Virus record (IMG/VR): IMGVR_UViG_3300024299_000001
Span: 32,001-96,000 of that record
DNA from: a virus
DNA: 64,000 bases
Direction: 5' to 3' (one strand)
In this document: in pieces, positions 18,901 through 40,042 of the stretch
Numbering within the stretch: position 1 is the stretch's first letter
How the letters are laid out: each line of letters starts with the position of its first letter
The notes under the pieces: generated by a model
Databases searched by the model: none
What the model was told of the DNA's origin: nothing
What the model saw: only the letters and a program-made list of their open reading frames with translations
Made by a program: the position numbers and the translations under genes

Positions 18901-19787
18901 CCGATATTGCCACCTGCGAGTTCCATAAGACCAGAAAGAACGCCAAAACCTAGTGAAGACATAGGAGCGTCTACGCCGTGCTCAGTCAAAAGCTCTCCGT
19001 AATTAAGACCTGCTTCAAGCTGAGATACTGTACCAACCATACCAGCTTTAGTAAGCTTCGCAACAGTTTTACGACCGCTAGCCTTCATATAGCCTTTAAG
19101 TAAGGCTTTTTCGAGTTGTTTCTCAGTAGCCTCTCGTGCAGTTTCTTTTATGACCTTATTTTTGATTTGGTGTGCAACTGCTGCCTTAGCTTTTTCTCTG
19201 ACCATTTTTCTCAAGCCATGTTTTACTACAGAGTATCCGACACCAGCAGATAGAGTTGTACCGATAATTGTTTCAGCTATAATAGGAACTTGGGATGCAA
19301 TTAAACCTTGAAACCAATCTACTCCTGTTCCTATACCTTTTACTTCATCAAGACTCAGAGTAGGATACTGACTTGCTTCGTCTTCGTACTGCGCGTACTT
19401 ATCCATACTAAAATCTTGAACAGCACTACCAGTGTCTTTAACAATGTCTATACCAAGTTTTTCTCCTGCGTACTTTGCTAAAGAACCAAGCACACCACCA
19501 AAGCCAGCCACACCTTGTTTAGTCGTAGCTATACCTTGTTTTAGACCGCGCTCTACATCTCCTAAGCGCAGCTTATTTGCTTCAGCTTGACGCTGTCTTA
19601 AAAGCTGGTGCTGCCAGTCTTCTTCATTAATACCAGACATAGTACGCGCGATTTGACCAAAGGGAACGCCTTGCTCAACAAGTGGTCGAATATCTACACC
19701 TTGATTTACTGCTAGACCTATAGCGATCTCTTGATCTGACATACCTTCTTGTAAGGCCGTCATATAATTTTCAGGAGTAAAGGGCAT
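9960..19787 (-). CDS. giant polyvalent-type virion/ejection protein (3275 aa): vRNAP-like N-terminal module, acidic and Lys-rich linkers, HExxH metallopeptidase-like, H-Y-E ART-like and EIQSD-type domains, hydrophobic C-terminal region
   Basis: Uninterrupted 9.8-kb ORF. 'ILHEGGHLL' (H1081); 'VYHGSP..YGWGFYGA..LYKLEMP'; 'IHEIQSDTHQD'; TM-like segments near residues 2780-3100. Confidence 0.8.
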   Translation of the reverse strand: MPFTPENYMTALQEGMSDQEIAIGLAVNQGVDIRPLVEQGVPFGQIARTMSGINEEDWQHQLLRQRQAEANKLRLGDVERGLKQGIATTKQGVAGFGGVLGSLAKYAGEKLGIDIVKDTGSAVQDFSMDKYAQYEDEASQYPTLSLDEVKGIGTGVDWFQGLIASQVPIIAETIIGTTLSAGVGYSVVKHGLRKMVREKAKAAVAHQIKNKVIKETAREATEKQLEKALLKGYMKASGRKTVAKLTKAGMVGTVSQLEAGLNYGELLTEHGVDAPMSSLGFGVLSGLMELAGGNIGLVDDFVGAIAKGMPGSYLKRAAKKLLTNIPSEMLQEAGQEVSSILNIVANTDEKFLTPENIKRIVESGVSGGAIGGAGAFVAATKSGIKKDLSVPDSIQDEVQQEPTTTQFAENAEEETIEETEEEETEETTDAEEVITEEDLSDMLESDLLPARSTKPYTTKKKAEGALKIRKLDPEKKFKVQQVKGGFVIREDTGEAEAAPKKTPKPKKLSDAEVIKLANVTEEDWKGYSAAQKNELRGEANMKSIKVETKGLKKETEEVKDKDSILPVPDTIKWGKMSLAQKLTFAKKHSSFTAYVNKKTNDTGLPKDKKEVQVMQAEFASTVYSAQLKKQNTKTKVGPYVQSNETEKEFTPFNAAEASEQKPLSKFQRLALGQIQESLLDENDYKPYPVIMDGKKIVGNFKWLNQKAIDAMEKEERPKTGVTAQTFKVLEKKGFIKRAEFDDGRVRWVPIDWKPKFKEKTITKDKKGQVKSKEKTKVEKPKTKKKSTKLPKPKNKDTKVISKEQSELDKINAKIAGQQYVLKHAKEGGAHKDVITDTKKIIHDLKVKRLHATMNLKKSQSEAKKEESSPITDKKEMSAAIDRFFGGTPSVKAINKRIAELKGMLTEYKKKDPEFAKQIEDKIRELESQSEAKKKVEKSEPIDSQKSTKKKKTSATTKKAKKSSKPAKKGSKPKKKVIKRTKAEQIKIRGVESQVVQDMQDMGIDDPLSKVEAVDYQEDLPDGVKKEFNLEEYDSTQELDFDDPKYSKGEKNRVAGVYWKGKLYLVLENLVRAGGAKGVILHEGGHLLLASDKQFKAMYNSFIASAAKRIKTDKVLLDIHNWVKEQYPSKPEVWEEETLMHYIQNEANTKLPFYKEMVFKLKAWLKRKLGMTENLSGYEMGLIVGNILRNKLGHTTLTSSAPLASRVYHGSPVTWQKESRFKHGRPRLDKMSTGSGVQTYGWGFYGAQMKATGLDYYKYFQFPAYNITGVTVNGKKIKFNPTAYNTKILFGQFVDANTAEDIALAYVGFAFNGTTHIHDTQEIYEDALWYLDIELEALRRDQASFENARLLPLYDQAGHLINAWKLKQAKINFTRSTNKDASLYKLEMPSPAISQLFHWDRTLGQQKPMARAKMHKLINSVQRKNSVPYKNKLHMRRINNNTLGSYIYRAVSKALGSDKAASLEFKKFGIPGLRFIDGWTRYKRYERKTFNYVIWDQKILNQTVVKKRNDIPLASKIIKFPAKSAYDKTSVNDRIAITPVEVADRVYYAMRPEVFKIWDAATGIKAEDTDVQARKKIWNAKQALTAEIGIFKFREYTKLKAELEQRYDFLTSGMIAFAKVYDDAFGGYKAKPQGGMTTPGNITVLEKAKDRKNADILPLKPPTKPKASKLAPKFSSRLEDDFIQAKGPGKATPENWLNTFKSWTNKSMPIHVKEEFFFSNLREWMQKQKGKVTKQQVMDHLAKYGLKARMDETVLGGRDITLFDQLHEEGINPEDYIAERASGFSGPAVNRVNELLTKPINETEYPDINGDFNKGESYTFATLIVAVDDKYIVFRDIIRDKLDNLGVYPEVRDHLLINVLNDTSLDSNSLRDSLAPISSDLMSKQSKDFLLADEDLVEDWRIIRDAVQDQGYLTEVQDALFSDAYRNAPVEADYVTLPTATGLKDYQEIIIQIPAIKDTELSKKGKHFRLENEVVHLRVSSIGDGLYIHEIQSDTHQDAKKYGYTDKKTYDKNTLKLRQLTEPGNAKVKHYVNYIVNKMHDTIPITKKNLDDKDVKRNFKIHVEGRFFGPFGPYSPAIYVDAEDLAINIIRGLSRDVRKSISVQDVESIIRDSKVMEKLIEPAFLAKKSLRAQPDLPFKDNSTQLALKRAVMEAVALGHTKLIWAKTPYHVAAIEGWPSNFRQDADGKWIYDSTEGIQIVDGIVKKYTEYLPQTITKLFKPYGGGKLTTTKIKDYAKAGKEFNSFEFNQELIDTVSADKVPLAAKVRTKAEQAKLDGEILGDNKAEAEKLFRDVMKDQETSKVPLRAKIAKLFNNVIDESDKLDESDGFTRKAHEQNIGIMGLLFNSPEYYLRRGAQAKKVMSHALREDNLKYTIEKFVLGNWTNLIKNLKKTSGYKKAYKIANDYLLQTDATGRGYSVKTKSTVTKTENAKVVKTTWLVMNPSNKVVGRAKTEEEATRKMISFEQQMLKKRKFNQASLDMVKEARLLTDRGFTLLTEELRRQVASAKENGLKAPTAQYTDDKGKTRQLAISQLITRIGDLRGTYFPRERQSKAYVLKAEHSNGKLVTKTYSGYLPQNVLSSPWVNKTRQLINTRMPVGVEARRLKALGYDVSIKVTPTPTDVIFDVPGLITSMDSLLKNAEENVKKDADTKVLQSIHNQMAQNIADVYKIKGRLTSRKQRSKRYYAGFETDMNKAFTSYAQRLAAGEARRTTTRNMLLAFTGRETSFKDWQKTNKKGTYTDYLTEVKKKAIDPTTQKGLYKATRLYMQFFLKPDTGFDRAVGYFKALAVVMYLGGRVSSAAVNLTNMVLAVPATITGYTGLNLAQSGKHVANSVTQYTKYRAGLSKKLGIHSLVGSGTLSAEDKAIFDYITSQGWDEANFNYEAARVIQGIGSRVFNEILKHAMVMFGATEKVNRATTIFAAYKALRQSDKEMYKRINTTLNSSKDPKLIEKAHKELLQHAKEISSQAHGTYGKAAKPWVIQKIRLLDLPFTFMKFQHNYILNMLDLGLNKKQIIAPLYMLMAPALLAGVPATMLTTLIKAMWPGHEDPEERFYQFIEDLTGSDTIARTGLIGATTGIDMTGSLQMNSPFPKKVIEIGGAPLAIWSDFAKAYEHFTFGETEKGLEDLAPRALGNIIKGKREFTEGLTTGSYAPVYHGTTPLKSTPYEVILRLFSFSPSRLSAIRDRQWSETQERREYTADRSDILRRYNRFYTLPLYKQDPEILMDLADKIRAYNNAVYTSKPKLLIPYITGKWLNRNLKQTFKPNKYEKQRSTL

Positions 19788-26497: not shown

Positions 26498-27352
26498 TTA
26501 AACCTCCGGCGTCCAACCATTAGTTGTAATAAGCCAATCATCTGCTGTGTAGTATTGAAAGACCGCTATATCTCCGGCGGTTGACAAGTTCGTTAGGTTC
26601 TTACCTTCAGCGTTTGTTGTGCCATCCATTAAGTATCCGTCAGCAGCGTTTGTATCAACGATAACTTCTATTGCTCCGAGTGTTATAATGGTGAAGTTCA
26701 TTCCTGCTACCATTAGCGGGAGTTGACAAGTGCCGGTTACGTTACAAACAAACGTACCACCGTAAAGATTAGCTCCGGTAAAGTTCGCTGCGAAATTTGC
26801 TGCTGAGTCTGTGACTGGTGTTAATGATGCTGTACTACCTGTTATTATACCATTCACTTCTAACTCTGTGGCTGGACTCGCAGTCCCTATGCCTACGTTG
26901 CCTGTATCACCCTCAACAACCAGTTTATCAGTATCAACCGCAAAATCATCTCCGGCATCGTTGTGAAGGTTTATGTTCACCCCTGCCCCTGTTGATTCGA
27001 TTGTGATATCTGCTGCGTTTGAGATTGAAGTTAGAGCGGTTGTGCCAGTTATGTCCGTATTAGAGCCTTTTCCAGCATAAAGAGTGTCTAAATAAGTTTT
27101 AAGAGTAGCTTTAATATTAGCCCAAGTAAGTTTCTTAAGAACACTAGAAGCAGCACTATCAGAAATACCGATAACATCAGCGTCAACTGGAGTTGTCTTT
27201 CCGGTAGCTGTGTTAATTGGTTTTGCTAAAGCATTACTTAAAGTTACTTTTTTCTGTAATGGTGAGCCACCAGGATCGTTGACTACATATATTAAATCAT
27301 CGCCTGTTGGAGCAGTGTCTTCTGTCAGTGCTGTTAATTTTGAGTCAGCCAT
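26498..27352 (-). CDS. tail fibre/receptor-binding-type protein
   Basis: The N-terminus 'MADSKLTALTEDTAPTGDDLIYVVND..KKVTL' is typical of phage fibre N-termini. The rest is T/G/A/N-rich. Confidence 0.6.
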   Translation of the reverse strand: MADSKLTALTEDTAPTGDDLIYVVNDPGGSPLQKKVTLSNALAKPINTATGKTTPVDADVIGISDSAASSVLKKLTWANIKATLKTYLDTLYAGKGSNTDITGTTALTSISNAADITIESTGAGVNINLHNDAGDDFAVDTDKLVVEGDTGNVGIGTASPATELEVNGIITGSTASLTPVTDSAANFAANFTGANLYGGTFVCNVTGTCQLPLMVAGMNFTIITLGAIEVIVDTNAADGYLMDGTTNAEGKNLTNLSTAGDIAVFQYYTADDWLITTNGWTPEV

Positions 27353-27374
27353 AATAACTCCTATGTATTAAAAT

Positions 27375-30300
27375 TTATTTACTAAAAAACATTTTTAAAT
27401 AATTAACTGGAAGTATGCTATCAACCGAGTCTACAAAGAAACTGAAAGGATTACCAAAATTTGAAAACATATTCTTTGTTACTCCTGGGATAGAATTATT
27501 AATATTATCTGCACCTATATGTGTAGATAAAAATAAAGCTGCAGCTACATCAAACGGTTTATCCATTGCATTATTTTTAATTACTTTAAGTATTCTTATC
27601 GCATATTTTGTAAAGCGTAGCAAGCCGATACTATTTAAGTATTCCACCATACGGTGGGTTGGGACTGCAAAATTAACAAATTCTTCTATTGCTTCGGCAA
27701 CTGCTTCTTCATGAGACATCTGTTCATCACCCCGGGCACTTGAAGTGTAATAATGGTACAACACGTGTCTTGCTACAAAATCGGTCATTTTAACGGCATT
27801 GTTAAGAACCTGGTATGCTTGGGTGTCTTGAGTCAGAAACGTAACCTTTCCTACGTTCTGCACGATCTGAGGTAGCTTATCTGTTAGCTTAGTAACTCCC
27901 TTCTCAAATTCACTTGGAAAATTTGAACCAGAAATAGTAGTATTAACATCATCAATAAACTGAGGCATTAGACCTGCTTCAATGGTTTTTGTTGTTGGGT
28001 TAATTTCAATAGTATTTTTAAGACGCATTATTTGGTTATCCAAGTCAAGTAATGACTGAGGAGCAGCACCTTTACGTTTAGCCAGCATTCTACGTTTTAC
28101 TTCAAGATCAGCTAATTTCTGTATATCAGCTTGGTATTTGAGTCCCATAGAGAAAGCTTCCCAAGCTGATTTAATTATAACATTAAAAGGTATTCCTTTG
28201 CTTCTAAGTACAAATAAGTTACTGCCAAAGTTATTTAATGTAACTGATAGAGACCTTACTATAATATTATTCTTAGCAAGTTTGGCCAACTCAATCATAG
28301 CCCCTTCTAAAGTATGTGCTCGGCGTACTCCTTTTACCTCTCCACCAAACAGACTCACTATGCCAATAAGAAGTCTTTCTAGTTTAGCTCTATCTTCAGG
28401 ATTCTTTGCAAAGGACTCCACTATGTTGTACTGCCGGTAACCAAAAGAAATATCTAACACGTCTTTAGGAATAAACATTGAGGGTCCGCCCCAAACTGTG
28501 TCAACAGTTTGTTTGGCTTTATCTGGCATCATATGGTATATGTCTCTTAGTTTTGGGTCAGGTGAGTTGGGCCCAATTTCTATGAAACCTCCAGGATTAC
28601 TCTGGTAATCAGCATCAAACATATCTTTTAAAAGGACAATTAGTTCTTCATTAATTATTGGTGTCCTTTCTTTATCAATTATCTGCCCAGCCATGGCACC
28701 CATGATTTTATCATACTCATTAACTTTTTCTAAAAAATTATCTTTAGTAGTTTCAGCCATCATGTATCTGTATTTTGTGGTAATTCCATTTTCATCAACT
28801 TGTGGAATCATCTGATTACTTGGTTTTAATTCAGGCTTAATATTAGGATTAGCCATATCACGAATTATCTTTGCTTTATATTTAATTATTTTAGCATTAT
28901 TCTTTTTACCTTCTTTAGTGGATATATCCATTTGCTGAGCTATTGTAAGTGGATCAGTACCTTTACCTCTGTTACCGGTATAAGAGAAAATAGTTGATAG
29001 TAAATCATTTATACGACCCGTTTGAGCAGTGTACACATAAATGTCTATATGTTTTAATGGATCTGCCTCATCCCGATCAATAGGAAATTCACTTCTACTA
29101 TAGCCTATTTGTGCAAGTTCCTCTTCTTCAGCTAAAGTACCATATTGGTAATTAGTACGGGTATTAACGATTTCTTTAGTATACCCTTTAATAAATTTAC
29201 GCTCATCTCCGTTAAAAGCTTTCTGTAAAGAGTCCTCTTTAAGAACTTGATGTAATTCAAAGAATTTATTAACTCCTTCAGGATCAGTATCAATTAATTC
29301 TTTAAATACCTGCCTGGAAGCTTTATCGGTATGTTGCAAAGCATATAGTGAACCAAGTTGATTAATTAGTTCTTCAGCCCTTAAAACCTCAGCGGCTGTT
29401 AATGGAACTGTTACATCATCTCTAGCTTTCATTTCAGCAATAACCAGGGCATTCTGAAAAACCTCTTCACCTGTTCTGCCTCTACTATGAATCATAAAAT
29501 GCCCCATGGCATCGGCTGCTTGCTTATAATAAGTTAAATGAGGCGCTAGAGCTGTATCAGTTTTAATTTGGTTAAGTACATTATTGATTGCTTTTCTTAA
29601 TTCATTTGGATCACCTAAAACTTTACTAATTCCATCCATACTAAGAGAATCTAATAAAGCAACTGTATCAGGCTTTAAACCAATTTTAGTTACTACTACT
29701 TTTTCTGCATCAGTAAGTTTGGTTTGCTTTGGATCCCGGAACTTAGTAAACAGTTTACCTGCTATACCGGAGTACTGTGCAATAGTAAATTCTTTAGCAC
29801 TGTCCAACCAAACTCCTCTTCTGTTCAGTAATTGATATATTGGGGCAAGTCGGTCAGTACGTCCTCTTAATTCTGTAACTAAAGATTTAAATAACCCATA
29901 CTCCAGTCTATCATAATCATTAGTCATCTTTCGTAGCTGATCACCAGCTAAAGAGTCTTTATCTTTATGGGTTTTAACTGCAGTCTTTAAACCTTTAACA
30001 ATTTTTAAAGGCCCTGAAGTAGCAGCTTTCTTGATATACTTATTAGAGAGATCAGCTACTTTTCTGTATTGTTGTTCAAATTTACTTTGGGTTTCAAATA
30101 ATTTATTTTTATGGTTCGAGTCTATTTTAGAAAGTAGAATGGCTAAGCGCTCTAGTTCTCGATCCATTCTTAAGTCATTTTTACTGGCATTAAATTTACT
30201 GTAAAAGAAATCAAATATCTTTTGAGCAATATTAAGAAGAGTCTGTTGGATATTACCTGCCTGAATATCTGACCAAGTACTGGTTGTATACATTCTTTCA

Positions 30301-33300
30301 GGTAGTGCTATACCAGATAAAGCTTTCAAGAAATTTTCATTAGTTAAACCAAGAATAACAAATTCAGCTAAATGGGGAGAGTGTCCTGATTCCCGGGTAA
30401 TCTTTGTTGCAGTGTCTGTTTGTTCAGATGCTTTGCGTTGAGCAGCAGTCCTGGTGTTACGAAAGATATAATTATATCTTTTCTGGGCAGCTTCAATTTC
30501 ATATTGATTTGCAGGATCATTCAACCAAGCAGCATTTACAGTTGGGTCGTTTAAAAAAGCTCTATAATCAAGCTTTCGGTAAGCCAGTTCATATAAGGTA
30601 TCCACTTGAGCACCTAATCTTGCATTAAGGCGTAAACCAGCTTCAAGTACCGGATGTAATAATTCATGGGTGTATACTTCACCAGAAGACATCCGGATAC
30701 CATTATTTAGGGCCCCAGTTATTGGGGCTGCAATTTGATTAGTCATAAAGACCTGACGAGTCTGGGATACAAATTTTCCTTCTGGTTCAGCATAAGGATT
30801 AGTTTTCATATACAGATCAACCGGCTGGAACACTGAATGTATCAAAGTCTTTAGAATTCGTTGCAGGTGATTATCATGCTGTACACTGTCTGTTACAGTG
30901 CTTTCACCCTTAATGTCATTGTAAACCTCTAATACATTCTTACTGCTTATTTCCTGAGCCCTGCCATATTTAGCTGGATCAATGGAAAGAGTGGAATCAT
31001 CTTTTGAACCAAGAGAATCGTTCGAATCTTCTTTAAGCATCTCAGCAATAAAAGCTTCTTCCAGTTCTTGTACAGAAAGATTATAATCAGCAAGAGCTTG
31101 TTGGTTAATTGTTGCTTGTGAGTACAAACCAGGCTCTGTTTTTGTTTCTACTATATTTACACCACCTATACTGGTTTGAGGAGCATTACCAGTTTTCCAT
31201 GCACCATCTCTATGAAAATAATGGTTAAAAGCAGTAACTGCATTCAGAACTCTGGCTTTATTTATTTTGGTTACTCTTACAATTTCCTTAATACCAAATT
31301 TCTTTTTACGTTTACCTTTCTCAGGAACACCATTTACTGTTTCATCCACTACTTGCTGTACTGATTTAGTCCAAGTTTTATTGTTGTAAGAAGAAACACC
31401 TTCTGTTAAACCCATTTCTTTAAAAACTTTTTGAAGTACTCTGTCTTTCTTTTCTTCTCGGGCAGGGTTTTCATTTGCGAATTCTGTAAAAGCTTCTATG
31501 GAAGTGGTAAAGGCTTCTACAATTTTTTCAGGTATACTGTCCAAAGACATATCGGTATAGAGGCTTTTATTTATAATTTGACCCATTGCGCCACCATTGG
31601 TAATGGCAACATAAAAACCATCATGAACTCCTAATACACCAACTCCCTGGTTATTGCCCATTGCTCTATTAGCAGAACTAGAATCATAATTTTGCACACT
31701 TATAATAACCGGTTTTACACTGGGATCTCCTAGTGTACTGAGTTTCTTTGCTCTATTATGCATTGGCTGGTAATGTACATTACTACCATCTGGTTGATAA
31801 GACTGAGTAGAGGTTCCTTCTACAGCAGTAGTATATTCAAGATTTGTAGCAAATTCAGCTAAAGGAACTTTCCCACCTAAAGAAGATTTTAAAACAGGAA
31901 AGATTTTCTTTATTCTATCACGAATTTGTTGTAACTGCTCTTGGGTCATTACACTACCAAATTTAGCAACATGCTCTTGAACTAACATTTTCTGCGCAGC
32001 ATTGTAAAAAGCAGCAGCAATTGTAATAGCTTTATTCAATGGAGTCCTGGCTTGTTGTATGTCTCCATAGATTTTATCTATAGCCTGAGTTAAGGCCTTA
32101 CCATGGTATTTATTAGTAAAAGCAGCAATATCTTCATAGATACTGGGATTAAGTTTAATCTTTAATAAAGCTTCTTTATTTAAATTTCCTTCAACACCAG
32201 CAATATTGGCAGGAATAAATAATGCTTTTGGGTTATTAGCTAAAGTATTAGTGTAACGAACAAGTTCTCTTAATTCATCAGCTGCAGCTGGACGAGTAGG
32301 GTCTTCTAAAATCTTTTCTAACTTAGCTTTAATACCATCTTCAATTATTGTAATGACTAAACCTCGTTTAATCTTACCATGACCGGAGCCATATAAAGCA
32401 CCTACAGCTCTATTCTTAGCTAATTTACGTACAGCCTTATCTAAGAAGCCTTTACTATCTGTAAGTTTTCCTAATAAGAATTCTGCAGCTTCCATGCGTT
32501 TATAAGTTGCAGTATCCTTAGCAGCGATCATAGTCTTTTTTAATTGGTTCACTAAAGCGCCCCAACCGGCCCCAATAGATTGGTAAGGATCATAAGGAAC
32601 AGTATCTGTTTCTACAGGATTCTCAGTAAACACCATACCTTCACTGGCTGCAATACCTAAATTCTTTATAGTGGGTAAACTTAATAATAACTGGATACCG
32701 CCAATAGTTGGTCCATTTGCCTGACCATCAATCTCTACTGGAAGAGAAGTAGTAAATTTACCAGCACCTGCTCTTTGAAATCTTTGGTACTCAAGAAGAC
32801 CTTTTAAAGTATGAAGGTCTTCGCCACCTTCTTTAATACCGGCTAAAATATCAGCCTCTAAGTCTGGTTGAGCTTTACGTAAGGCTACCATCTCATCTGG
32901 TGAGTACTCAGTATGCTGTTCTGCGGCTGATAGGAATACATCAATAGCAGCTAAAGCAGATTGTATTACTGGACTTTCTAAAATATCAGTTGTTTTTTGT
33001 TGCACTATAGCCATAGATGCTTCTTTAGTAGGATCCACTCCTAATGAGAGGCCTACTGCTGCTTTAAATAATTCAACTACTTGTTCATCTGATTTATCAA
33101 AAGTGGCTTCCCAAGCTTTATTTTTAAACAGAAATCTATGGGTCATACTATTTTGTGGTTGAATAGGACCTGCTTGTTGCATTCGTCCAGTAGCAATAAA
33201 ATAAGATTGTATAAAGAAATTAGAAGCATACTTAGCTGTTTCTTTTTTAGCATTGTGTAACCAGAAGCGTACTGCATCCAGATCAAGTTCAATTTTACGA

Positions 33301-36300
33301 TTAATACTCTCTCTGTGTTTATGTCGGTCATGTGTTGCATCATTAATGTTTACTGCACCAGCTGCAGTTCTCTGTCCAGCATTAGTCAGAAAAGTAAATA
33401 TATTCATAACACCATGGGATAATCCATAAGGTTGTTCAATATATTGTTTTAAATTATTGGTTTGAGGGATTGTTGCAAATTCACTTGTTCTGGCCAATGG
33501 CCACTTTTCTTTATCATTTTCCCAGGTGGGTTTGGTAAAAGAGTAGTCTAACGGATCTGCTGTTAATTTAAATAATTGTTCCCAGACACCTTTACCATAT
33601 TCATAATCTGTTCGTGTCTGGGTATTTGCATTTGTTAAGGCTTCAAATGAAGTCCCATCTTTTAATGTAACAACCTTACTAGCAATACGAAAGAAATCTA
33701 CTTTAGTAGTGTTTTTTCTGTCTATAACATCTTCTTTGGCTACATCTAGTCTTTGATCAGGAAGAATAAAAGTATTTATTAATTGAGGAGAGAGTGGAGC
33801 TTGTGGAGTATTTAACATATGATTACGTAAACCATAGAATCCTAAAGTAATCTTTTCTGTTTTTACAGGAGTACTGGGTATTCTTCCGGCATTAACTTGA
33901 GTACGCTCTACTCGACCCATACGATCTAATGTAGCCAATAACAGAGTACCAAGATCTTGTTCAATGAGCTCTCGGTCAAATACACCAATATCTTGAGTAG
34001 CCTTGATCTCAAACATCTTAATAACATCTTTACCCAGCGTTCCACTCAAATAATCTTTGGAGGCGCCAATACGACTAACCAAAGCTCTAACATCTTCAGA
34101 GATTTCCTGACTCTCTTTAAGATTAAATATTTTACGAATACTTTTGTCATCATTTATTAAGGTTTTAGGACCTTGAGTTGCTAACCACTTCCAAGCAGTA
34201 GCTGACATGGCCATAAGAAAGTTAGGATTTAGTTCACCATTAACTCTAAAATAATTAACAGCATCTTCATAAAAGAATTTTTCATTTGCTTTTGGTTTAA
34301 AAGTTTTAAGTAATGTAGCAGAGAATTCTTTATTAAACTTCATTAAAGCAATTGCTGCTTTTTCCTGATCTGGATTTAAAGAATGATTTTTAGATAATAT
34401 CTTTTTACGCATTGCTGCAACAAAATCAGGAATCTTATTTAATAAACTCTTAGGGCCGGCTTTACCATAAATTGGTTTAAAAAAAGCTCTAAGCGTATTA
34501 ACCCATAATCTGTTATTGGCTAAATCAGTATTATTTGTGTTACCTGGGGTAAGAGATTCTCTATCAATACCTGTTTTATCAGTTAATTGTTCAGCTAAGG
34601 GTGTATGTTTTTCAGAAGCTGTTTTTTCATATAATTGTTTTCTGCGATTTTGATATTCTGTATTATAAGAATTTTTCCATTTATTAGTTTTAGGATCAAT
34701 ACCTAAAGCTTCCATTATACTATCAGGATCTGTTGTTATAGGGTTATTCGAAATAAAAGCAAAATCAGTCTCTGAAAAATTTCTATTTTTTAATTCTTGT
34801 TTAATACTATCATAATACTCTTGTTCATTACTTGCGTATCCTTGAGCAACTTCACCATAACGAAGATGCTCAGAAATATCTCCTTCGTAATTTTCTTTAT
34901 CCAACTCATCCATTAAAACAGAAGTAGCTGTAGTACTATGATCATACTTAATATTCTTTTTTGAAACAGAATACTGTCCTTTAGGTATGATAATATCTTT
35001 TTTTGTAACAATCCTTTGTTCCCGTTCATCACCTACTACTCTTTCATCAGTAACAGCAGTTCCACCTTGTCTATTTAAAGGAAAGATTTTATCAAGATAA
35101 TCAATATTTATTTGTATAATAAAAGGATTTTTAGAATACCGATTTCCATACTCTTCTGCTAATTCTTTATCTTCAGCAAAAGAAATTCCAGTATTTTTAA
35201 ACAAGGAATCATGAGTAGGGGTTAAAACTAAATTACCTTTATCGTCTATATAAGGAGCCTCTTCCTGCCCCCTAAATAAAGTTTTTTCAGATGGCTCAGA
35301 CTCAGAAAATGCCGACGCGTCGTCAGCATTTTCTTCGGGTTTAGAGCCATCTTCTTTCTTTGGTTTCTTTTCAGTTGCATGCTTTGTTCTAAGTACTGCT
35401 TCAATTTCTTGTCTTCTGTCAGTATTAGTTTTTTCAGTATTCTGATAAAGAGTTTGTAATTCCGCTTTGGTCATTTCTTCTAATGTTAAGAATGTTTCAG
35501 ATTCATCCTGACCAAAAAAAGTATCTTCCTCTTCAACTACAAAATCTTCTTGTACTGGTGTAGTTGTTTCAATATCTTGGTCTGTTTTATAGGCTTTTAA
35601 ACCTAATTCTTGTGCTGTTGCAGTAAGAACTTTACCTGTATTTGTTTTTATTTCAATACTATAACCAGTAACAGTTTTTACCCCATTAACTATACTGAAG
35701 CTATCTGGAATCACATTACCAGTTACCTGAGCTTTAAAGGTACCAGTGTATTTAGGAAAATCAACAGTAACCCATTTTCCTTTATTTGTTTTAACTAAAG
35801 AAGTTATTTCTTGCTCAGCACTCAAAGGTTGTTCATTACTTCCGACTTCCTCTGAGGAAACATCTTCCGCTGTCGCTGCAGAAATTTCCTCCTCCTCAGT
35901 CTCAGACTGAACAACCTTTTCGGCAGTAGGCTGAGCTTGGGGAGGGGTGATCATATCCTGTGCAACTGAAAGAGCTTCAGACAGAGAATCAGCCTCACGC
36001 TCCATGGATTGAATTGAAGCTTCAAAGTTTGTATTAAAGTCATAATCGGCATTATAACCAATTGATGCACGTTCAGTGTTCAGTTGTTCTAAGAATTTCT
36101 GATCAGCCGCAGAGAATGTTTTAATGACTGCTTCTTGTTCTTCAGTTGTTTTAGCTTTTGCTTTAATTACTGCATCCTGAAGTCTACGAAATAAATCAGC
36201 TTTAATGGCATGTCTTTCAGTGAATGCCTGAAGATCTGATAACTGAGATTTAGCTAATTTGGTGTCCTTATTTTGTGTTGCAATGGCTATGGATTGCAGG

Positions 36301-38186
36301 TAGCCCTTGATACCTTTAAATTTATCTTTGATTCTACCATTGATAATATCTTGGTTCACCTGCACAGATGTCTTGTTTATAGGGCTTTTTTGGCCCTCTA
36401 GAGTCGCTTTGGCACTTTTCTGATAGGAGAGTATGCGTTTGAACTTAACCTTCGTTATATCGTCTATTTTGGGGTTATTCAGGACCTCATTGATATCAGC
36501 ATCTGTAAAATCACCTTTTGAACCAAAAACAGTAAGAATAGCTTCCTGGATCTTAACAGAATCAGAACCCTTAAGAATTGTCTTAACTTCTTTGAGTTTC
36601 TCAGGTGAAGCAGTCTCTTCTCGGCCCATACTATCGATGACCGGTACTATCTGATCTATGATGGCTTTAGAGGCCATGGCTTGTTTCATTGCAGAGACGG
36701 CTAACTCACCCTCTTCTTTAGTAAGTTCTCTTTCTTCTTTAATTGCCTGGTACTTCTGTACTTCTTTAATTTGTTCCTGGAATTCAGCATCTACTGCATT
36801 ATGGATCTCTATTGCTTTATCATGATTGGTTATTTTAACCGATGGATCCAGATCTTTCTTTTGATTAATCTGTTGTAATGCTTCAGCTGCCAATACAGGA
36901 TTATCTTTATGCATGGAAATGTCTTCTGTTTCAACAGCAGCTGATAATTTATCTTCATAACCTAATTGTGCTTTAGGATTCGCTTTAACCCTGAGAGCTT
37001 TACGTTCTGCTTTACGTTCAGTAGATTCTTGCTGTTCCTGTTCTGACCGAGTAAATACTCCGCCTACACTGGTAACCGGTCCACCAAGTGAACCAAGCAT
37101 ACCAGCATCAAACTGTTCTTTACGAGATTCAGCAGAGAAAGGATTCTTACCAGTACCCCATTGTTCAATGGCTGTTTGCGCGTACTCTTCAGCAAATTCA
37201 ACAGGAGCAACTTTACCTGCGGTTACACCAACTCTGGTAGCTTTGCCGGCCACACCACTTACTTTTTTACCTAATCCACCAATGGTACTGAGGCCACCTT
37301 TTAAAGCTTTTACATTAAACAGTAAATCTAAGTATTCAACTGCTCCGGCCAGTCCAGTAGCAATTCCAGCTTTCTGGATTTGTTTCCAGGTTACATCTGC
37401 TTCCTGGGATAGAGTACCAAATATCTCACCACCCTCTAAACCAAAACCAGCAGAGGCCATACCAATATGGGTACCAGCTTTACTGGTTACAGAAGATATT
37501 GCTAATTTAGATACTGAATCAGTTGCAGCAACTTTAGCAATGTTTTCAGTAGTTACTTTAGCACCTTGAGTAATTAATTGCTGTTTAGCTATCCGATCAG
37601 CTTCTTTCTTAACTAAACCACCCATAAGCTTACTAATTGCTTTTTTACCAGTAAGCTCCACACCGGTTTTAATAATACCACTACCAACCAACAAGCTAGT
37701 TAATTGCCCGGCCACATAACCCGAACCATGGGAGAACCAAGAAACTAATGCTTTCCAATCGCCTTCTTTAGCTTTTTCATAAGAGTAAGTAAAAGAATCT
37801 TCTGGTTGGGCGCCCACACCAATGTCTTGTTCAATTTTATGATACTTACCAGCAGCCGCTTCTTTAATCTTGGTAGCAATACCACCTTCCCCTACAATCT
37901 TTTCAGCCACAAGAGCACCGCCAGCTACTACACCTGAAGCTAACATAGGAATGCCCTTAACTGATTCTACAACACCCCGAGCTGCTGCTTCAGGAAGAGT
38001 CTCTTTATAAGGGATTAAAGGCTGATTAGGTTCTTGAAAAGTGTTAACACTGCTTCGTAACTGTGCTTCCATAGTTGCAGTATCAAATTGCTTTTCTGCT
38101 GTTTTACTATTCAATATATCTATCTTAGCTTGAAGAGTATTTTGAAGATCAATACCTTTTTGCGGAGCAAGCTCTGGATCAAACAT
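27375..38186 (-). CDS. virion-encapsidated RNA polymerase (N4 gp50-like vRNAP), 3603 aa
   Basis: Central T7-like single-subunit RNAP motifs: A 'LPVEIDGQANGPTIGGIQ' (D1820), B 'RKLAKNRAVGALYGSG' (R1920, K1924, Y1932), C 'GVLGVHDGFYV' (H2188-D2189). The size and position match N4-like phages. Confidence 0.85.
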   Translation of the reverse strand: MFDPELAPQKGIDLQNTLQAKIDILNSKTAEKQFDTATMEAQLRSSVNTFQEPNQPLIPYKETLPEAAARGVVESVKGIPMLASGVVAGGALVAEKIVGEGGIATKIKEAAAGKYHKIEQDIGVGAQPEDSFTYSYEKAKEGDWKALVSWFSHGSGYVAGQLTSLLVGSGIIKTGVELTGKKAISKLMGGLVKKEADRIAKQQLITQGAKVTTENIAKVAATDSVSKLAISSVTSKAGTHIGMASAGFGLEGGEIFGTLSQEADVTWKQIQKAGIATGLAGAVEYLDLLFNVKALKGGLSTIGGLGKKVSGVAGKATRVGVTAGKVAPVEFAEEYAQTAIEQWGTGKNPFSAESRKEQFDAGMLGSLGGPVTSVGGVFTRSEQEQQESTERKAERKALRVKANPKAQLGYEDKLSAAVETEDISMHKDNPVLAAEALQQINQKKDLDPSVKITNHDKAIEIHNAVDAEFQEQIKEVQKYQAIKEERELTKEEGELAVSAMKQAMASKAIIDQIVPVIDSMGREETASPEKLKEVKTILKGSDSVKIQEAILTVFGSKGDFTDADINEVLNNPKIDDITKVKFKRILSYQKSAKATLEGQKSPINKTSVQVNQDIINGRIKDKFKGIKGYLQSIAIATQNKDTKLAKSQLSDLQAFTERHAIKADLFRRLQDAVIKAKAKTTEEQEAVIKTFSAADQKFLEQLNTERASIGYNADYDFNTNFEASIQSMEREADSLSEALSVAQDMITPPQAQPTAEKVVQSETEEEEISAATAEDVSSEEVGSNEQPLSAEQEITSLVKTNKGKWVTVDFPKYTGTFKAQVTGNVIPDSFSIVNGVKTVTGYSIEIKTNTGKVLTATAQELGLKAYKTDQDIETTTPVQEDFVVEEEDTFFGQDESETFLTLEEMTKAELQTLYQNTEKTNTDRRQEIEAVLRTKHATEKKPKKEDGSKPEENADDASAFSESEPSEKTLFRGQEEAPYIDDKGNLVLTPTHDSLFKNTGISFAEDKELAEEYGNRYSKNPFIIQINIDYLDKIFPLNRQGGTAVTDERVVGDEREQRIVTKKDIIIPKGQYSVSKKNIKYDHSTTATSVLMDELDKENYEGDISEHLRYGEVAQGYASNEQEYYDSIKQELKNRNFSETDFAFISNNPITTDPDSIMEALGIDPKTNKWKNSYNTEYQNRRKQLYEKTASEKHTPLAEQLTDKTGIDRESLTPGNTNNTDLANNRLWVNTLRAFFKPIYGKAGPKSLLNKIPDFVAAMRKKILSKNHSLNPDQEKAAIALMKFNKEFSATLLKTFKPKANEKFFYEDAVNYFRVNGELNPNFLMAMSATAWKWLATQGPKTLINDDKSIRKIFNLKESQEISEDVRALVSRIGASKDYLSGTLGKDVIKMFEIKATQDIGVFDRELIEQDLGTLLLATLDRMGRVERTQVNAGRIPSTPVKTEKITLGFYGLRNHMLNTPQAPLSPQLINTFILPDQRLDVAKEDVIDRKNTTKVDFFRIASKVVTLKDGTSFEALTNANTQTRTDYEYGKGVWEQLFKLTADPLDYSFTKPTWENDKEKWPLARTSEFATIPQTNNLKQYIEQPYGLSHGVMNIFTFLTNAGQRTAAGAVNINDATHDRHKHRESINRKIELDLDAVRFWLHNAKKETAKYASNFFIQSYFIATGRMQQAGPIQPQNSMTHRFLFKNKAWEATFDKSDEQVVELFKAAVGLSLGVDPTKEASMAIVQQKTTDILESPVIQSALAAIDVFLSAAEQHTEYSPDEMVALRKAQPDLEADILAGIKEGGEDLHTLKGLLEYQRFQRAGAGKFTTSLPVEIDGQANGPTIGGIQLLLSLPTIKNLGIAASEGMVFTENPVETDTVPYDPYQSIGAGWGALVNQLKKTMIAAKDTATYKRMEAAEFLLGKLTDSKGFLDKAVRKLAKNRAVGALYGSGHGKIKRGLVITIIEDGIKAKLEKILEDPTRPAAADELRELVRYTNTLANNPKALFIPANIAGVEGNLNKEALLKIKLNPSIYEDIAAFTNKYHGKALTQAIDKIYGDIQQARTPLNKAITIAAAFYNAAQKMLVQEHVAKFGSVMTQEQLQQIRDRIKKIFPVLKSSLGGKVPLAEFATNLEYTTAVEGTSTQSYQPDGSNVHYQPMHNRAKKLSTLGDPSVKPVIISVQNYDSSSANRAMGNNQGVGVLGVHDGFYVAITNGGAMGQIINKSLYTDMSLDSIPEKIVEAFTTSIEAFTEFANENPAREEKKDRVLQKVFKEMGLTEGVSSYNNKTWTKSVQQVVDETVNGVPEKGKRKKKFGIKEIVRVTKINKARVLNAVTAFNHYFHRDGAWKTGNAPQTSIGGVNIVETKTEPGLYSQATINQQALADYNLSVQELEEAFIAEMLKEDSNDSLGSKDDSTLSIDPAKYGRAQEISSKNVLEVYNDIKGESTVTDSVQHDNHLQRILKTLIHSVFQPVDLYMKTNPYAEPEGKFVSQTRQVFMTNQIAAPITGALNNGIRMSSGEVYTHELLHPVLEAGLRLNARLGAQVDTLYELAYRKLDYRAFLNDPTVNAAWLNDPANQYEIEAAQKRYNYIFRNTRTAAQRKASEQTDTATKITRESGHSPHLAEFVILGLTNENFLKALSGIALPERMYTTSTWSDIQAGNIQQTLLNIAQKIFDFFYSKFNASKNDLRMDRELERLAILLSKIDSNHKNKLFETQSKFEQQYRKVADLSNKYIKKAATSGPLKIVKGLKTAVKTHKDKDSLAGDQLRKMTNDYDRLEYGLFKSLVTELRGRTDRLAPIYQLLNRRGVWLDSAKEFTIAQYSGIAGKLFTKFRDPKQTKLTDAEKVVVTKIGLKPDTVALLDSLSMDGISKVLGDPNELRKAINNVLNQIKTDTALAPHLTYYKQAADAMGHFMIHSRGRTGEEVFQNALVIAEMKARDDVTVPLTAAEVLRAEELINQLGSLYALQHTDKASRQVFKELIDTDPEGVNKFFELHQVLKEDSLQKAFNGDERKFIKGYTKEIVNTRTNYQYGTLAEEEELAQIGYSRSEFPIDRDEADPLKHIDIYVYTAQTGRINDLLSTIFSYTGNRGKGTDPLTIAQQMDISTKEGKKNNAKIIKYKAKIIRDMANPNIKPELKPSNQMIPQVDENGITTKYRYMMAETTKDNFLEKVNEYDKIMGAMAGQIIDKERTPIINEELIVLLKDMFDADYQSNPGGFIEIGPNSPDPKLRDIYHMMPDKAKQTVDTVWGGPSMFIPKDVLDISFGYRQYNIVESFAKNPEDRAKLERLLIGIVSLFGGEVKGVRRAHTLEGAMIELAKLAKNNIIVRSLSVTLNNFGSNLFVLRSKGIPFNVIIKSAWEAFSMGLKYQADIQKLADLEVKRRMLAKRKGAAPQSLLDLDNQIMRLKNTIEINPTTKTIEAGLMPQFIDDVNTTISGSNFPSEFEKGVTKLTDKLPQIVQNVGKVTFLTQDTQAYQVLNNAVKMTDFVARHVLYHYYTSSARGDEQMSHEEAVAEAIEEFVNFAVPTHRMVEYLNSIGLLRFTKYAIRILKVIKNNAMDKPFDVAAALFLSTHIGADNINNSIPGVTKNMFSNFGNPFSFFVDSVDSILPVNYLKMFFSK

Positions 38187-38194
38187 AAGACATC

Positions 38195-40042
38195 CTATTT
38201 ATTAAGATTAACCGGAAGTGCTCGTAAAAATGAGTCTCTATCTTTTTTTAAACGGCGGGAAGTTCCTTTTGTAAAGTCCCCACTTTTAAGTTTTTTAATT
38301 ATTTCAACAGGAGCTCCTGTATGGGTAACACCCCCGAGTTTTTTTATAGTTTTTTCAAATTCTACTGCTGACATTTGTTTTATATCTTTGGTTAGTTGAT
38401 CCCCAACTTGTTTTGAAATAGCAGAATTGTTCTCTAAGGCTCTCTTAAAAGCAGCTTTAGCCTCTATCAAAGATTGCTTTTGCAAAGTAGGCGAAGATTC
38501 ATTAGGAAGTTTTGAAAAAGCTGTACTCATTTGTTCAACAAATGAACCATTATTGACAGTACCAGAAAGGTTTCCTTTTCGTTGTTCTTGTCTCCAACCT
38601 AGTAATGCACCACTCTTTGCAACTGCAGCTTTTTCAAGTTCTCTTTTTAAACTTTTAGAGTCTGTAATTATTTGTTGTCTAATAGCTTTACCATCATTAT
38701 ATTGCCTCATTCGAGCTCTAATTGTGGCATCTAAAGCTTTTGGGGCTACTCCTTTTGCTCCACCAAAACCATAACTATCTCCAACAGAATCCTGATAAGC
38801 CAACCAGAGTAAACTATTTGCATCAACATCATTAATACCAGGAAGACTTCTTAATTGCTGTAATTTATTATTTAAAATAGAACTAACAGTACCTGGGCTA
38901 GTTTTTAAAGCGCTCCACCAATCAGAAGGTTCGACTTTTCCTGTTTTTGTGAGACTCTTCATAATCTCGCCTACCATACCACCATCCTGCAATACTGTTT
39001 TTTCAGCAAATGTTTTTGTATTCTCATCAAGCCCAGTAACATTACTTAATTGTTGCTTTAAAGAATCTATATGCGCAGTAGCATCTGCTTGTTGTTGTGT
39101 AAGCTGTGAATCAGCTTCTAATTTAAGCTGATTATACATTTCTTCTTGAGGACCTTTAAGTTTTTGTTTTTGCTTTGCATAACCTAGAGCCATGTTAGAA
39201 GCAGCTATTTGCTGAGTACCATTAAGGTTTGCTTTTTTAGCACCAACTTGTACTGCTTGTGCAGGATCCATACCATTATTAATATTTTTTAAAAAATCAG
39301 TGTTGAAAGCGTTAAGAGCTACTCTATCAGCTTCTTGTCTCTGATAAATACTTTCTGTTCTATTTGCTGACATTTCTTGAGTGAGCTTTTGCTGGACAAC
39401 ATCCCAATTAGCCTTAATCCCTTGTTGTTTACCCGCATCAATGGTTTCTTGAATTTTTGCTGGAGAAGTTATTGGTCCTGTATTTAATAAGAAAGTGTCT
39501 GTAGCATCTTTTCTTTCTTTATTAAATTTATTCTGTAATACCCCAGCTCCTTGTTCCCACTTAGAAGCCTGTTGCAGTGCCCAGTCATTATCAGCGCCTT
39601 TAGCAATCAAATTTTCATATACAGCCTTTGAACCAAGAGTAATATCCTTACCATCGTTGGCTGCTTGAGTACCAATTCCAGAGGCAATACTAAGTGCATC
39701 AGCCCTTAGATCAGTACGTTGCTTGGCTACATTTTTAGTAAGCTTATCAAAGTTCGCCATCTTACCGTACTGTTGTTCTATAGTACCAATATCAAACCGA
39801 CCTGCATCTTCTGCTTGGTTCAACTCACCAAGAGATTTTAACTTTTGTAAGTTAGCTTGGATACCAGTATCAACATTTTCTCCTTGTTGAATAAAATTCT
39901 CTTCCTGGAGTTTTTGATGATCGGTAAGTATTTTTTTAAAAGGATCAAACCCACTAATAATATCTTCATTAGCATCACCTATTGCTTCCAGTGGGCCTTC
40001 AAAGGAGGGTGCATTTACATTCCGCCAAGTAATCTGAGCCAT
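38195..40042 (-). CDS. virion structural/internal protein (hypothetical), coiled-coil rich
   Basis: 615-aa ORF directly upstream of the vRNAP gene. Confidence 0.7.
   Translation of the reverse strand: MAQITWRNVNAPSFEGPLEAIGDANEDIISGFDPFKKILTDHQKLQEENFIQQGENVDTGIQANLQKLKSLGELNQAEDAGRFDIGTIEQQYGKMANFDKLTKNVAKQRTDLRADALSIASGIGTQAANDGKDITLGSKAVYENLIAKGADNDWALQQASKWEQGAGVLQNKFNKERKDATDTFLLNTGPITSPAKIQETIDAGKQQGIKANWDVVQQKLTQEMSANRTESIYQRQEADRVALNAFNTDFLKNINNGMDPAQAVQVGAKKANLNGTQQIAASNMALGYAKQKQKLKGPQEEMYNQLKLEADSQLTQQQADATAHIDSLKQQLSNVTGLDENTKTFAEKTVLQDGGMVGEIMKSLTKTGKVEPSDWWSALKTSPGTVSSILNNKLQQLRSLPGINDVDANSLLWLAYQDSVGDSYGFGGAKGVAPKALDATIRARMRQYNDGKAIRQQIITDSKSLKRELEKAAVAKSGALLGWRQEQRKGNLSGTVNNGSFVEQMSTAFSKLPNESSPTLQKQSLIEAKAAFKRALENNSAISKQVGDQLTKDIKQMSAVEFEKTIKKLGGVTHTGAPVEIIKKLKSGDFTKGTSRRLKKDRDSFLRALPVNLNK

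Follow-up and report, generated by a model that had tools for sequence, protein, structure and literature searches.

A 223-residue cassette inside the virion RNA polymerase (vRNAP) of an N4-like phage probably has the fold of an ADP-ribosyltransferase (ART), as judged from structure models, and we lean towards the view that it is an active NAD+-dependent transferase of Arg-Ser-Glu (R-S-E) configuration, delivered together with the polymerase as an effector lodged in its linker. The polymerase is encoded in the stretch studied here, 64,000 nt of IMGVR_UViG_3300024299_000001 (positions 32,001 to 96,000 of that record), which we call the window and to whose positions all coordinates refer. An initial annotation had read the three R-S-E ART motifs in the N-terminal third of this protein. 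Overall, its interpretation is partly supported by the results below, while its novelty was overstated.

The cassette lies in the linker of an N4-type virion RNA polymerase

Judged from its giant chain, its ExDGxxxG and HExxH motifs and its structural-gene neighbourhood, the 3603-residue carrier protein is an N4-type vRNAP (Table 1). Against PHROGs, residues 1190-3603 hit phrog_2206 (virion RNA polymerase) with E=0 and 1026 bits, and the N-terminal third hits it at 2.5e-10. From residue ~1247 on, the protein aligns by tblastn to annotated vRNAPs of Acinetobacter, Vibrio and Enterobacter N4-like phages. The chain is very divergent: Pfam at E<=0.01 finds no domain in the whole protein, phmmer against the PDB gives no match to the N4 mini-vRNAP, and the protein is identifiable by PHROGs and tblastn only. 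The polymerase module is intact and contains a motif that fits the N4-vRNAP signature ExDGxxxG (PMC10654107), and a HExxH domain downstream of the polymerase is found in N4-like vRNAPs (Iyer et al. 2017, PMC5512222). The gene is surrounded by those for the major head protein and other virion, head and tail proteins. The exact protein occurs on 17 metagenomic contigs, ~74.5-kb ones included, from JGI, ENA and Logan. Because the same vRNAP is present on 17 contigs in three archives, it is no assembly artefact, and an assembly chimera was thereby ruled out as the origin of the cassette.

Table 1. Positions of the vRNAP gene, its cassette and its key motifs in the window.
Feature	Position	Strand	Basis or remark
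vRNAP gene, carrier of the ART-like module	27375..38186	minus	ORF, 3603 aa
Acidic/basic linker of low complexity directly preceding the module, residues 932-966	35289..35393	minus	last stretch common to the module-less sisters
Whole cassette, residues 967-1189, 223 aa, ART-like core and helical subdomain	34620..35288	minus	blastn and protein junctions
ART-like alpha/beta core, residues 969-1081	34944..35282	minus	present in all ~30 homologues; AlphaFold model
C-terminal helical subdomain, residues 1088-1189	34620..34925	minus	five predicted helices; conserved in closer homologues only
R972-G973 codons, [FYW]-R-G at the end of strand 1	35268..35273	minus	29/29
S1002 codon, G-x-S-F-A in strand 2, then helix with A1010 and Y1013	35181..35183	minus	29/29
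E1056 codon, E-x-R at strand start after variable-length loop	35019..35021	minus	29/29
EIDGQANG, residues 1818-1825	32712..32735	minus	polymerase module intact; fits ExDGxxxG
THELLH, residues 2506-2511	30654..30671	minus	HExxH motif; N4-like vRNAPs typically have such a zincin-like peptidase domain

The cassette is delimited by comparison with a sister phage, IMGVR_UViG_3300022888_000011 (locus L001). Its vRNAP is identical in the aligned stretch that ends at residue 966 (84% identity over residues 1-1001 overall) and is 99% identical to the window vRNAP from residue ~1187 on, and in place of residues 967-1189 it has 21 unrelated acidic residues. At the DNA level, 669 nt here (34620-35288) correspond to 63 nt in the sister. 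The same short, module-less version of the vRNAP is present on a second contig, Ga0257118_1002562; when further polymerase relatives were sought at the junction, the module-less variant alone was recovered, these two times. The initial annotation had given the module a span of 34950-35300 (residues 963-1079), which covers the alpha/beta core, but the whole unit extends to residue 1189 (34620). It had also placed the module in the N-terminal third of the vRNAP and discussed it together with the N-terminal domain (NTD) of the N4 vRNAP, which has no assigned enzymatic activity. From these alignments, the cassette is an accessory bead in the linker between the NTD and the polymerase, not a part of the conserved NTD, and the closest related polymerases lack it. 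N4 gp50 is built as a beads-on-a-string chain of NTD, a 100-aa low-complexity linker (residues 907-1006), RNAP and C-terminal domain (PMC13434306). At the place equivalent to this low-complexity linker, the linker of the window protein holds an extra folded domain of 25 kDa.

The cassette is also foreign in composition. Its G+C content is 29.3%, compared to 36.1% for the gene and 38.4% for the window, which ranks it second-lowest of 102 equal-sized windows within the gene and in the lowest 0.16% of all 669-nt windows in the 64,000 nt. Contigs carrying other members of the module family (described below) have 27-30% G+C, matching the cassette and unlike the window, which speaks for an acquisition by the N4-like phage and against a loss in its sisters. 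These base compositions point to horizontal capture from an unrelated low-G+C phage lineage. An origin as an intein or homing element was rejected: there are no such motifs, and the swap from 63 nt to 669 nt has no evident repeats.

Two further differences from the sister phage were seen around the cassette. DNA identity is 92% upstream of it (35289-37972) versus 99.4% downstream (27048-34619), which puts the cassette at a recombination boundary within the gene. In addition, a 615-aa ORF just upstream of the vRNAP gene (38195-40042, minus strand) shares only its first 181 residues, at 90% identity, with a 685-aa ORF of the sister (L001:5098-7155). Its C-terminal two-thirds are unrelated to those of the sister ORF, with no DNA match across window positions ~37973-39505, and this difference is a second module swap right beside the vRNAP cassette.

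Arg, Ser and Glu are the only invariant polar residues of the family

The motif strings reported by the initial annotation were found at the residues it had given: LFRGQEE at 970-976 (35259-35279), GISFAEDKELAEEYG at 1000-1014 (35145-35189), PFIIQINIDYL at 1021-1031 and VVGDEREQRIV at 1050-1060 (35007-35039). The numbering of R972, S1002, E1054 and E1056 was likewise correct. We aligned 29 family members, which are 26-56% identical to the window copy, over 126 query positions. Seven of the 126 columns are invariant (R972, G973, S1002, A1010, Y1013, E1056 and P1068), and R972, S1002 and E1056 are the sole polar residues among them, even though the most divergent members are only 26-33% identical. 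Since these three had been named as key residues beforehand, the chance that all of them would fall within seven of 126 columns is roughly 1e-4. Because the cassette is missing from the closest polymerases and from deposited phages, the conservation of the triad, which was to be sought in homologous vRNAPs, can be assessed in the mobile family only; there it holds throughout.

The residue before R972 is always aromatic (F in 12, Y in 11 and W in 6 of the 29), and R1058 is Arg in 26/29 and Lys in 3/29. The consensus motifs are S-L-[FYW]-R-G-Q, G-x-S-F-A...A..Y-G, N-P-[YF]-I-I-E-I, R-x-x-G-D-x-x-E-x-R and I-I-P-K-G-x-Y-x-I, and P-x-I-D-x-x-G-N-L forms a family-specific hairpin motif. The loop just before E1056 has insertions of 3-7 residues in four members and in this respect calls to mind the loop for substrate recognition that ARTs have ahead of their catalytic Glu. 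By contrast, the E-x-E motif that had been proposed did not survive: residue 1054 is E in 16 members, Q in 3, F in 3, A in 3, S in 2, D in 1 and N in 1, and this variability shows that E-x-E is not a family feature.

Structure models weakly resemble ADP-ribosyltransferases

AlphaFold2, run with the family alignment, gave models of good confidence: it modelled residues 963-1192 with a pLDDT of 89.3 and a pTM of 0.81, and the core alone (residues 963-1088) with 90.0 and 0.80. The predicted strands comprise model residues 7-12, with R10 (R972) near the end, a hairpin of 24-26 and 29-31, then 36-42 with S40 (S1002), 60-65 and 86-89, followed by 94-98, which starts at E94 (E1056), 103-105 and 110-114; helices lie at 45-53 and 66-72 within the core, and five more follow it. 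R972, S1002 and E1056 are thus on the predicted strands expected for ART triads, namely strand 1, strand 2 followed by a helix, and a strand start after a variable loop, where strand 94-98 may be the canonical strand 5.

In Foldseek searches of the PDB, ~45 of the 50 best matches to the core belong to the ART superfamily. The best is TkoKptA (9ldi; E 0.022, probability 1.00, TMq 0.50), and the others include Tpt1 (8tg6, TMq 0.53), many PARP1 and PARP12 chains (TMq 0.40-0.48), Arr and the Rhs toxin TreX. Among the 50, the exceptions outside the ART superfamily are an anti-CRISPR protein, SSB, MazF and LptA. For the full unit, 37 of the 50 best matches are ARTs, diphtheria toxin included. A fold search of BFVD gave weak matches, some to ART-PolyVal and polyvalent-protein entries and others to uncharacterised phage proteins. 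The initial annotation had named C3, VIP2 and Alt as the folds to compare; almost only ART-superfamily structures were indeed recovered, but the nearest are KptA/Tpt1, PARP and Arr, and the statistics are weak. Taken together, these models make an ART fold of the cassette probable.

Profile comparison gives a weak signal towards the T4 Mod family

Sequence searches with the module gave no informative match in Pfam, PHROGs, NCBIfam or PADLOC. A lone Pfam match to DUF3841 occurred in one member (E 0.024), and we found no literature on such a link. WG_beta_rep matches in Pfam were rejected as noise from the D-G-N-L-V-L hairpin, and PDB hairpin matches to myelin P2, CFAP161 and bulb-lectin-like proteins were rejected as chance.

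With hhalign, the family profile aligned to T4 ModA with P 0.0013, pairing S-L-[FYW]-R-G with P-L-W-R72-G and G-x-S-F-A..A..Y-G with V-V-S96-A-S..A..F-A; the hhalign comparison with T4 ModB was likewise no more than suggestive. As a ModA homologue search gave only 3 proteins, a Mod profile of 9 members was built from phage records; the invariant residues of its alignment include R72, G73, S96, A104, F107, E163, E165, P169 and G171. Against this profile, the local alignment (P 0.011) covered the Ser motif and the following helix. The global alignment reached P 4.8e-4 over 113 columns, with an HH probability of only 13%, and paired R with R72, S with S96, A with A104, Y with F107, P1068 with P169 and G1070 with G171. 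As controls, reversed alignments gave P 0.85-0.92, and none of 30 block-shuffled alignments beat the global score (best 0.0024). The D1053-E-R-E1056 stretch looks like D-E-Q-E of Mod, but it stands 11 rather than 3 residues before the P-x-G turn, and the module has one extra short strand there. An alignment to ART families had been called for by the initial annotation; it established no profile link, and the relation to the T4 Mod family is suggestive.

The module belongs to a mobile family found in multidomain phage proteins

The family was collected with HMMER, by scanning 1.84 billion representative proteins exhaustively for relatives of residues 965-1096. This gave 34 matches, 26 of them below 1e-10. 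One match is the vRNAP itself and two (P0029 and P0030) are spurious KWG-repeat proteins, which were dropped, so that ~30 homologues remain. Word-indexed homologue searches found nothing, and the family surfaced only in the exhaustive scan. The homologues are unnamed multidomain phage proteins of 126-6581 aa, known from metagenomes only, in which the module takes very varied positions. Three more copies lie near the C-termini of ORFs of 1438+, 3601 and 3851 residues on IMG/VR viral contigs of 36-120 kb. No region besides the module is common to the homologues and the vRNAP. The closer homologues span the entire 967-1189 unit, which indicates that the mobile unit is the core plus its helical extension. 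Among deposited genomes, 50,697 phage records gave no tblastn match to the module or to a divergent member, nor did 72,556 plasmids, and a pattern search of one genome per GTDB species found none.

In six proteins, a Pfam ART-PolyVal domain lies directly beside the module: P0002 (module 58-277, ART-PolyVal 330-461), P0012 (272-385 and 522-635), P0021 (251-416 and 517-650), P0026 (352-465 and 97-258), P0013 (1553-1696 and 1731-1856) and P0023 (149-316 and 413-550). Other partner domains are NADAR (P0011), cpYpsA (P0023), a zeta-toxin/AAA_33 kinase (P0033) and an AlkB-like domain (on contig L009). In some carriers, the ART-PolyVal domain has its nearest counterparts in crAss-like phages, where the genes concerned bear the annotation RNA-polymerase-associated. 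The gene after one carrier (on contig L010) matches a PHROG virion structural protein. With its recurrence in large proteins of many architectures, alongside conflict-related domains, the module has the sequence hallmarks of a polyvalent-type effector. Its residence in a vRNAP and the virion gene next to the L010 carrier suggest that it is packaged in the virion and injected.

Several side observations concern these carriers. On the module-carrying low-G+C contigs, giant ORFs stand in tight tandem (L006:1-14563, L009:53-17016, L010:26-11635 and L011:65-14937; proteins P0002-P0028), and nearly all of them begin M-x(1-5)-C and end C-x(0-4). On L006, for example, a chain ending in RLTSC is followed by one running from MSCPQYRT to IEKQCS, then by a GIY-YIG homing endonuclease, then by a chain running from MGCVIKYKG to KKCYL, and then by one beginning MKCINTKHPDF; the junctions on L009, L010 and L011 look the same. 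Neither the vRNAP of the window nor its other giant ORF has these terminal Cys residues, which may serve for head-to-tail docking, as a disulfide or zinc link between cargo proteins, or as a processing signal. The homing endonuclease gene of L006 (GIY-YIG/NUMOD3, L006:9399-10013) is wedged between two tandem giant ORFs and overlaps both; it could be one route to the splitting and shuffling of the giant gene array. In the most divergent carriers, P0034 (residues ~330-470) and P0033, an ART-PolyVal-like stretch lies downstream of the module. In P0034, its usual V-V-Y-H-G is replaced by I-L-F-R-G-S, which, if real, would make it an Arg-for-His variant of ART-PolyVal.

Proposed mechanism and alternative explanations

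If the module is the R-S-E transferase that we favour, it would work as follows. A unit of ~25 kDa, consisting of a ~115-residue core and a ~100-residue helical subdomain, would be made late, packaged in the capsid within the polymerase, threaded into the host with it at the start of infection and refolded there. It would then bind host NAD+; by analogy with R-S-E ARTs, the Arg and the Ser would hold NAD+ and the Glu would promote cleavage of the nicotinamide-ribose bond. The ADP-ribose would be moved to a host macromolecule, most likely a protein as with T4 Alt, which would promote the early development of the phage or neutralise a defence. That some near-identical phages have the module and others do not marks it as an optional, host-range-type effector. 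Release by the HExxH peptidase of the polymerase itself is conceivable, and processing by such a peptidase was discussed by Iyer et al. 2017 (PMC5512222).

A number of results weigh against this reading. At the sequence level, Pfam at E<=5 on all 29 members finds no ART family, PDB searches return nothing relevant, whether the query is the single sequence, a divergent member or either of the two profiles, and hhalign against the ART-PolyVal domains of the same proteins gives P 0.41. The local Mod score was equalled or beaten by ~5 of 30 block-shuffled alignments, and E163 and E165 of Mod align not to E1056 but to non-conserved residues 1061-1064, 7-9 residues downstream of it. No Foldseek match to the PDB reaches E<=1e-3, the TM of ~0.5 is borderline with an rmsd of 5-7 A, no C3, VIP2, iota or cholera toxin is among the 50 best matches, and the nearest structures come from the H-H-h and H-Y-E clades, not from R-S-E. 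Within the module, there is no S-T-S motif but one conserved Ser only, the N-terminal helical subdomain of C3 or VIP2 is lacking, and the loop before E1056 has only 4 residues in the window protein.

The fold statistics, with every Foldseek E at or above 0.02, together with the uniformly negative searches against known families and the inconsistent register of the Glu motif against Mod, could also mean that the module is an unrelated small alpha/beta domain, for example a structural or ejection-related bead, in which the R...S...E pattern and the ART-like matches are coincidental. We regard this as improbable, as an unrelated fold would hardly recover several ART clades in ~45 of its 50 best PDB matches, the invariant residues stand on the expected strands, and the companion domains are part of the NAD/ADP-ribose network. 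Somewhat less improbable, though still doubtful, is a module without catalysis, ART-like or derived from an ART, that binds NAD+, ADP-ribose or a host protein; it would be a targeting or regulatory partner, for instance of ART-PolyVal, and in the polymerase a binding bead. The direct proximity of ART-PolyVal in the six proteins fits such a role, as do the very small core for an ART, the very short loop before the Glu and the lack of a match to any known ART profile. However, a strictly invariant Arg, Ser and Glu at 26-33% identity is typical of active sites, and Pfam finds no ART-PolyVal partner in this polymerase.

Among the alternatives, the likeliest, although we still consider it unlikely, accepts an NAD+-using ART fold but not an Alt-like protein mono-ART. 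The module would then act beside a polymerase at work on the incoming genome, either on a nucleic-acid target (bases as with DarT, or phosphate ends as with KptA/Tpt1) or as an NAD+ glycohydrolase. The structures that match it best are of KptA/Tpt1 enzymes in complex with RNA or DNA, it is fused to an RNA polymerase, and family members also carry NADAR and AlkB-like repair domains. Moreover, classical R-S-E toxins have their target amino acid determined by the position -2 to the Glu, and in this family the position -2 to E1056 varies, with E or Q in only 19/29. The active site of KptA/Tpt1 is an Arg-His-Arg-Arg tetrad. No set of invariant Arg and His residues matching this tetrad is present in the 29-member alignment, and R972 is followed by Gly, not His, in 29/29. 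Shared polyvalent proteins do not imply a shared pathway, and the invariant Arg-Ser-Glu is the configuration of protein-modifying ARTs (PMC5512222).

Returning to the R-S-E transferase, a broader proposal is made here tentatively. The family may be the founding set of an unrecognised, minimal R-S-E ART clade (core of ~115 residues) that is specific to injected giant phage proteins, and the first R-S-E-type ART in genuine polyvalent proteins. The low-complexity linker between NTD and polymerase in N4-like vRNAPs would be a cargo slot where effector beads come and go among phages that are otherwise identical, and the present module would have been taken from an unrelated low-G+C phage lineage.

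Other features of the window

A second giant ORF of 3275 aa (9960-19787, minus strand) has no match in Pfam (E<=0.01) or PHROG (E<=1e-5). It begins, as the vRNAP does, with a Gly/Ala-rich stretch. Two proteins of >3000 aa are unusual for an N4-like genome of ~74.5 kb. No tRNA genes were found in window positions 1-64000.

Significance and relation to known systems

ARTs are the commonest modifying domains in polyvalent proteins, and N4-like vRNAP modules fused to ART, lysozyme and PBECR domains have been described, with the prototype ART in Roseovarius Plymouth podovirus 1 (Iyer et al. 2017, PMC5512222). The ARTs on N4-like polymerases in that work are of the His-Tyr-Asp type (ART-PolyVal). 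A 2022 survey of viral NAD/ADP-ribose systems lists an N4-like H-Y-[EDQ] family beside the R-S-E families of Alt/VIP2 and of Mod (PMC9503650). An ART on an injected polymerase was therefore already known, and the idea raised by the initial annotation is not new. What is new is a distinct, unannotated family with an R-S-E configuration and a minimal core, whose module lies in the linker, is carried by only some of a set of near-identical phages and was apparently transferred from a low-G+C phage lineage. We did not find the family described in the searchable literature.

If active, the module would represent a new ART family with a very small core, and it would extend the Alt-like strategy of injecting an ART with the DNA to an R-S-E-type enzyme on the injected polymerase itself. 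Since the family is covered by no Pfam, PHROG, NCBIfam or PADLOC model and has no representative in ~50,000 deposited phage genomes, it marks a gap in the catalogues of phage counter-defence and host-takeover enzymes. The pair of module-plus and module-minus phages is a natural experiment on the role of the effector, and it also bears on the beads-on-a-string idea, in which extra folded domains would be threadable through an N4-type ejection channel.

The polymerase itself resembles N4 gp50 in domain order, in ExDGxxxG and HExxH and in its structural-gene neighbourhood, whereas by tblastn the module is absent from N4 and all deposited N4-like phages. With the C3-like, VIP2 and iota ARTs, the module shares the aromatic-Arg-Gly and an invariant Glu that opens a strand just behind a variable loop, which recalls the ARTT loop; it differs from them in having no S-T-S, no conserved [QE]-x-E and no N-terminal four-helix subdomain, its helices being C-terminal. 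The structures closest to the models, over ~110-130 aligned positions, are those of KptA/Tpt1, PARP, Arr and diphtheria toxin, but their His-based active sites are not found in the module and there is no sequence similarity.

A close parallel in way of life is ART-PolyVal (PF18760, N4-ART, of the Tox-ART-HYD2 clade). Like the module, it is predicted to use NAD+, is mobile and of variable architecture, resides on injected giant proteins including N4-like polymerases, and is predicted to act on the host immediately after entry. The two differ in that ART-PolyVal has His-Tyr-Asp and the module Arg-Ser-Glu, the module has no match to PF18760, and both occur side by side as separate domains. In configuration, a close parallel is the R-S-E-2 clade of T4 ModA, ModB and Alt, the last of which is delivered from the capsid with the DNA (PMC5512222). 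The module has a core about half the size of the Mod/Alt-type core and, like these enzymes, an Arg-Ser-Glu configuration; its [FYW]-R-G and x-S-F-[AS]...A..[YF] motifs have the same spacing as L-[YW]-R-G and V-S-F-S...A..F in the Mod family, with a P-x-G turn after them.

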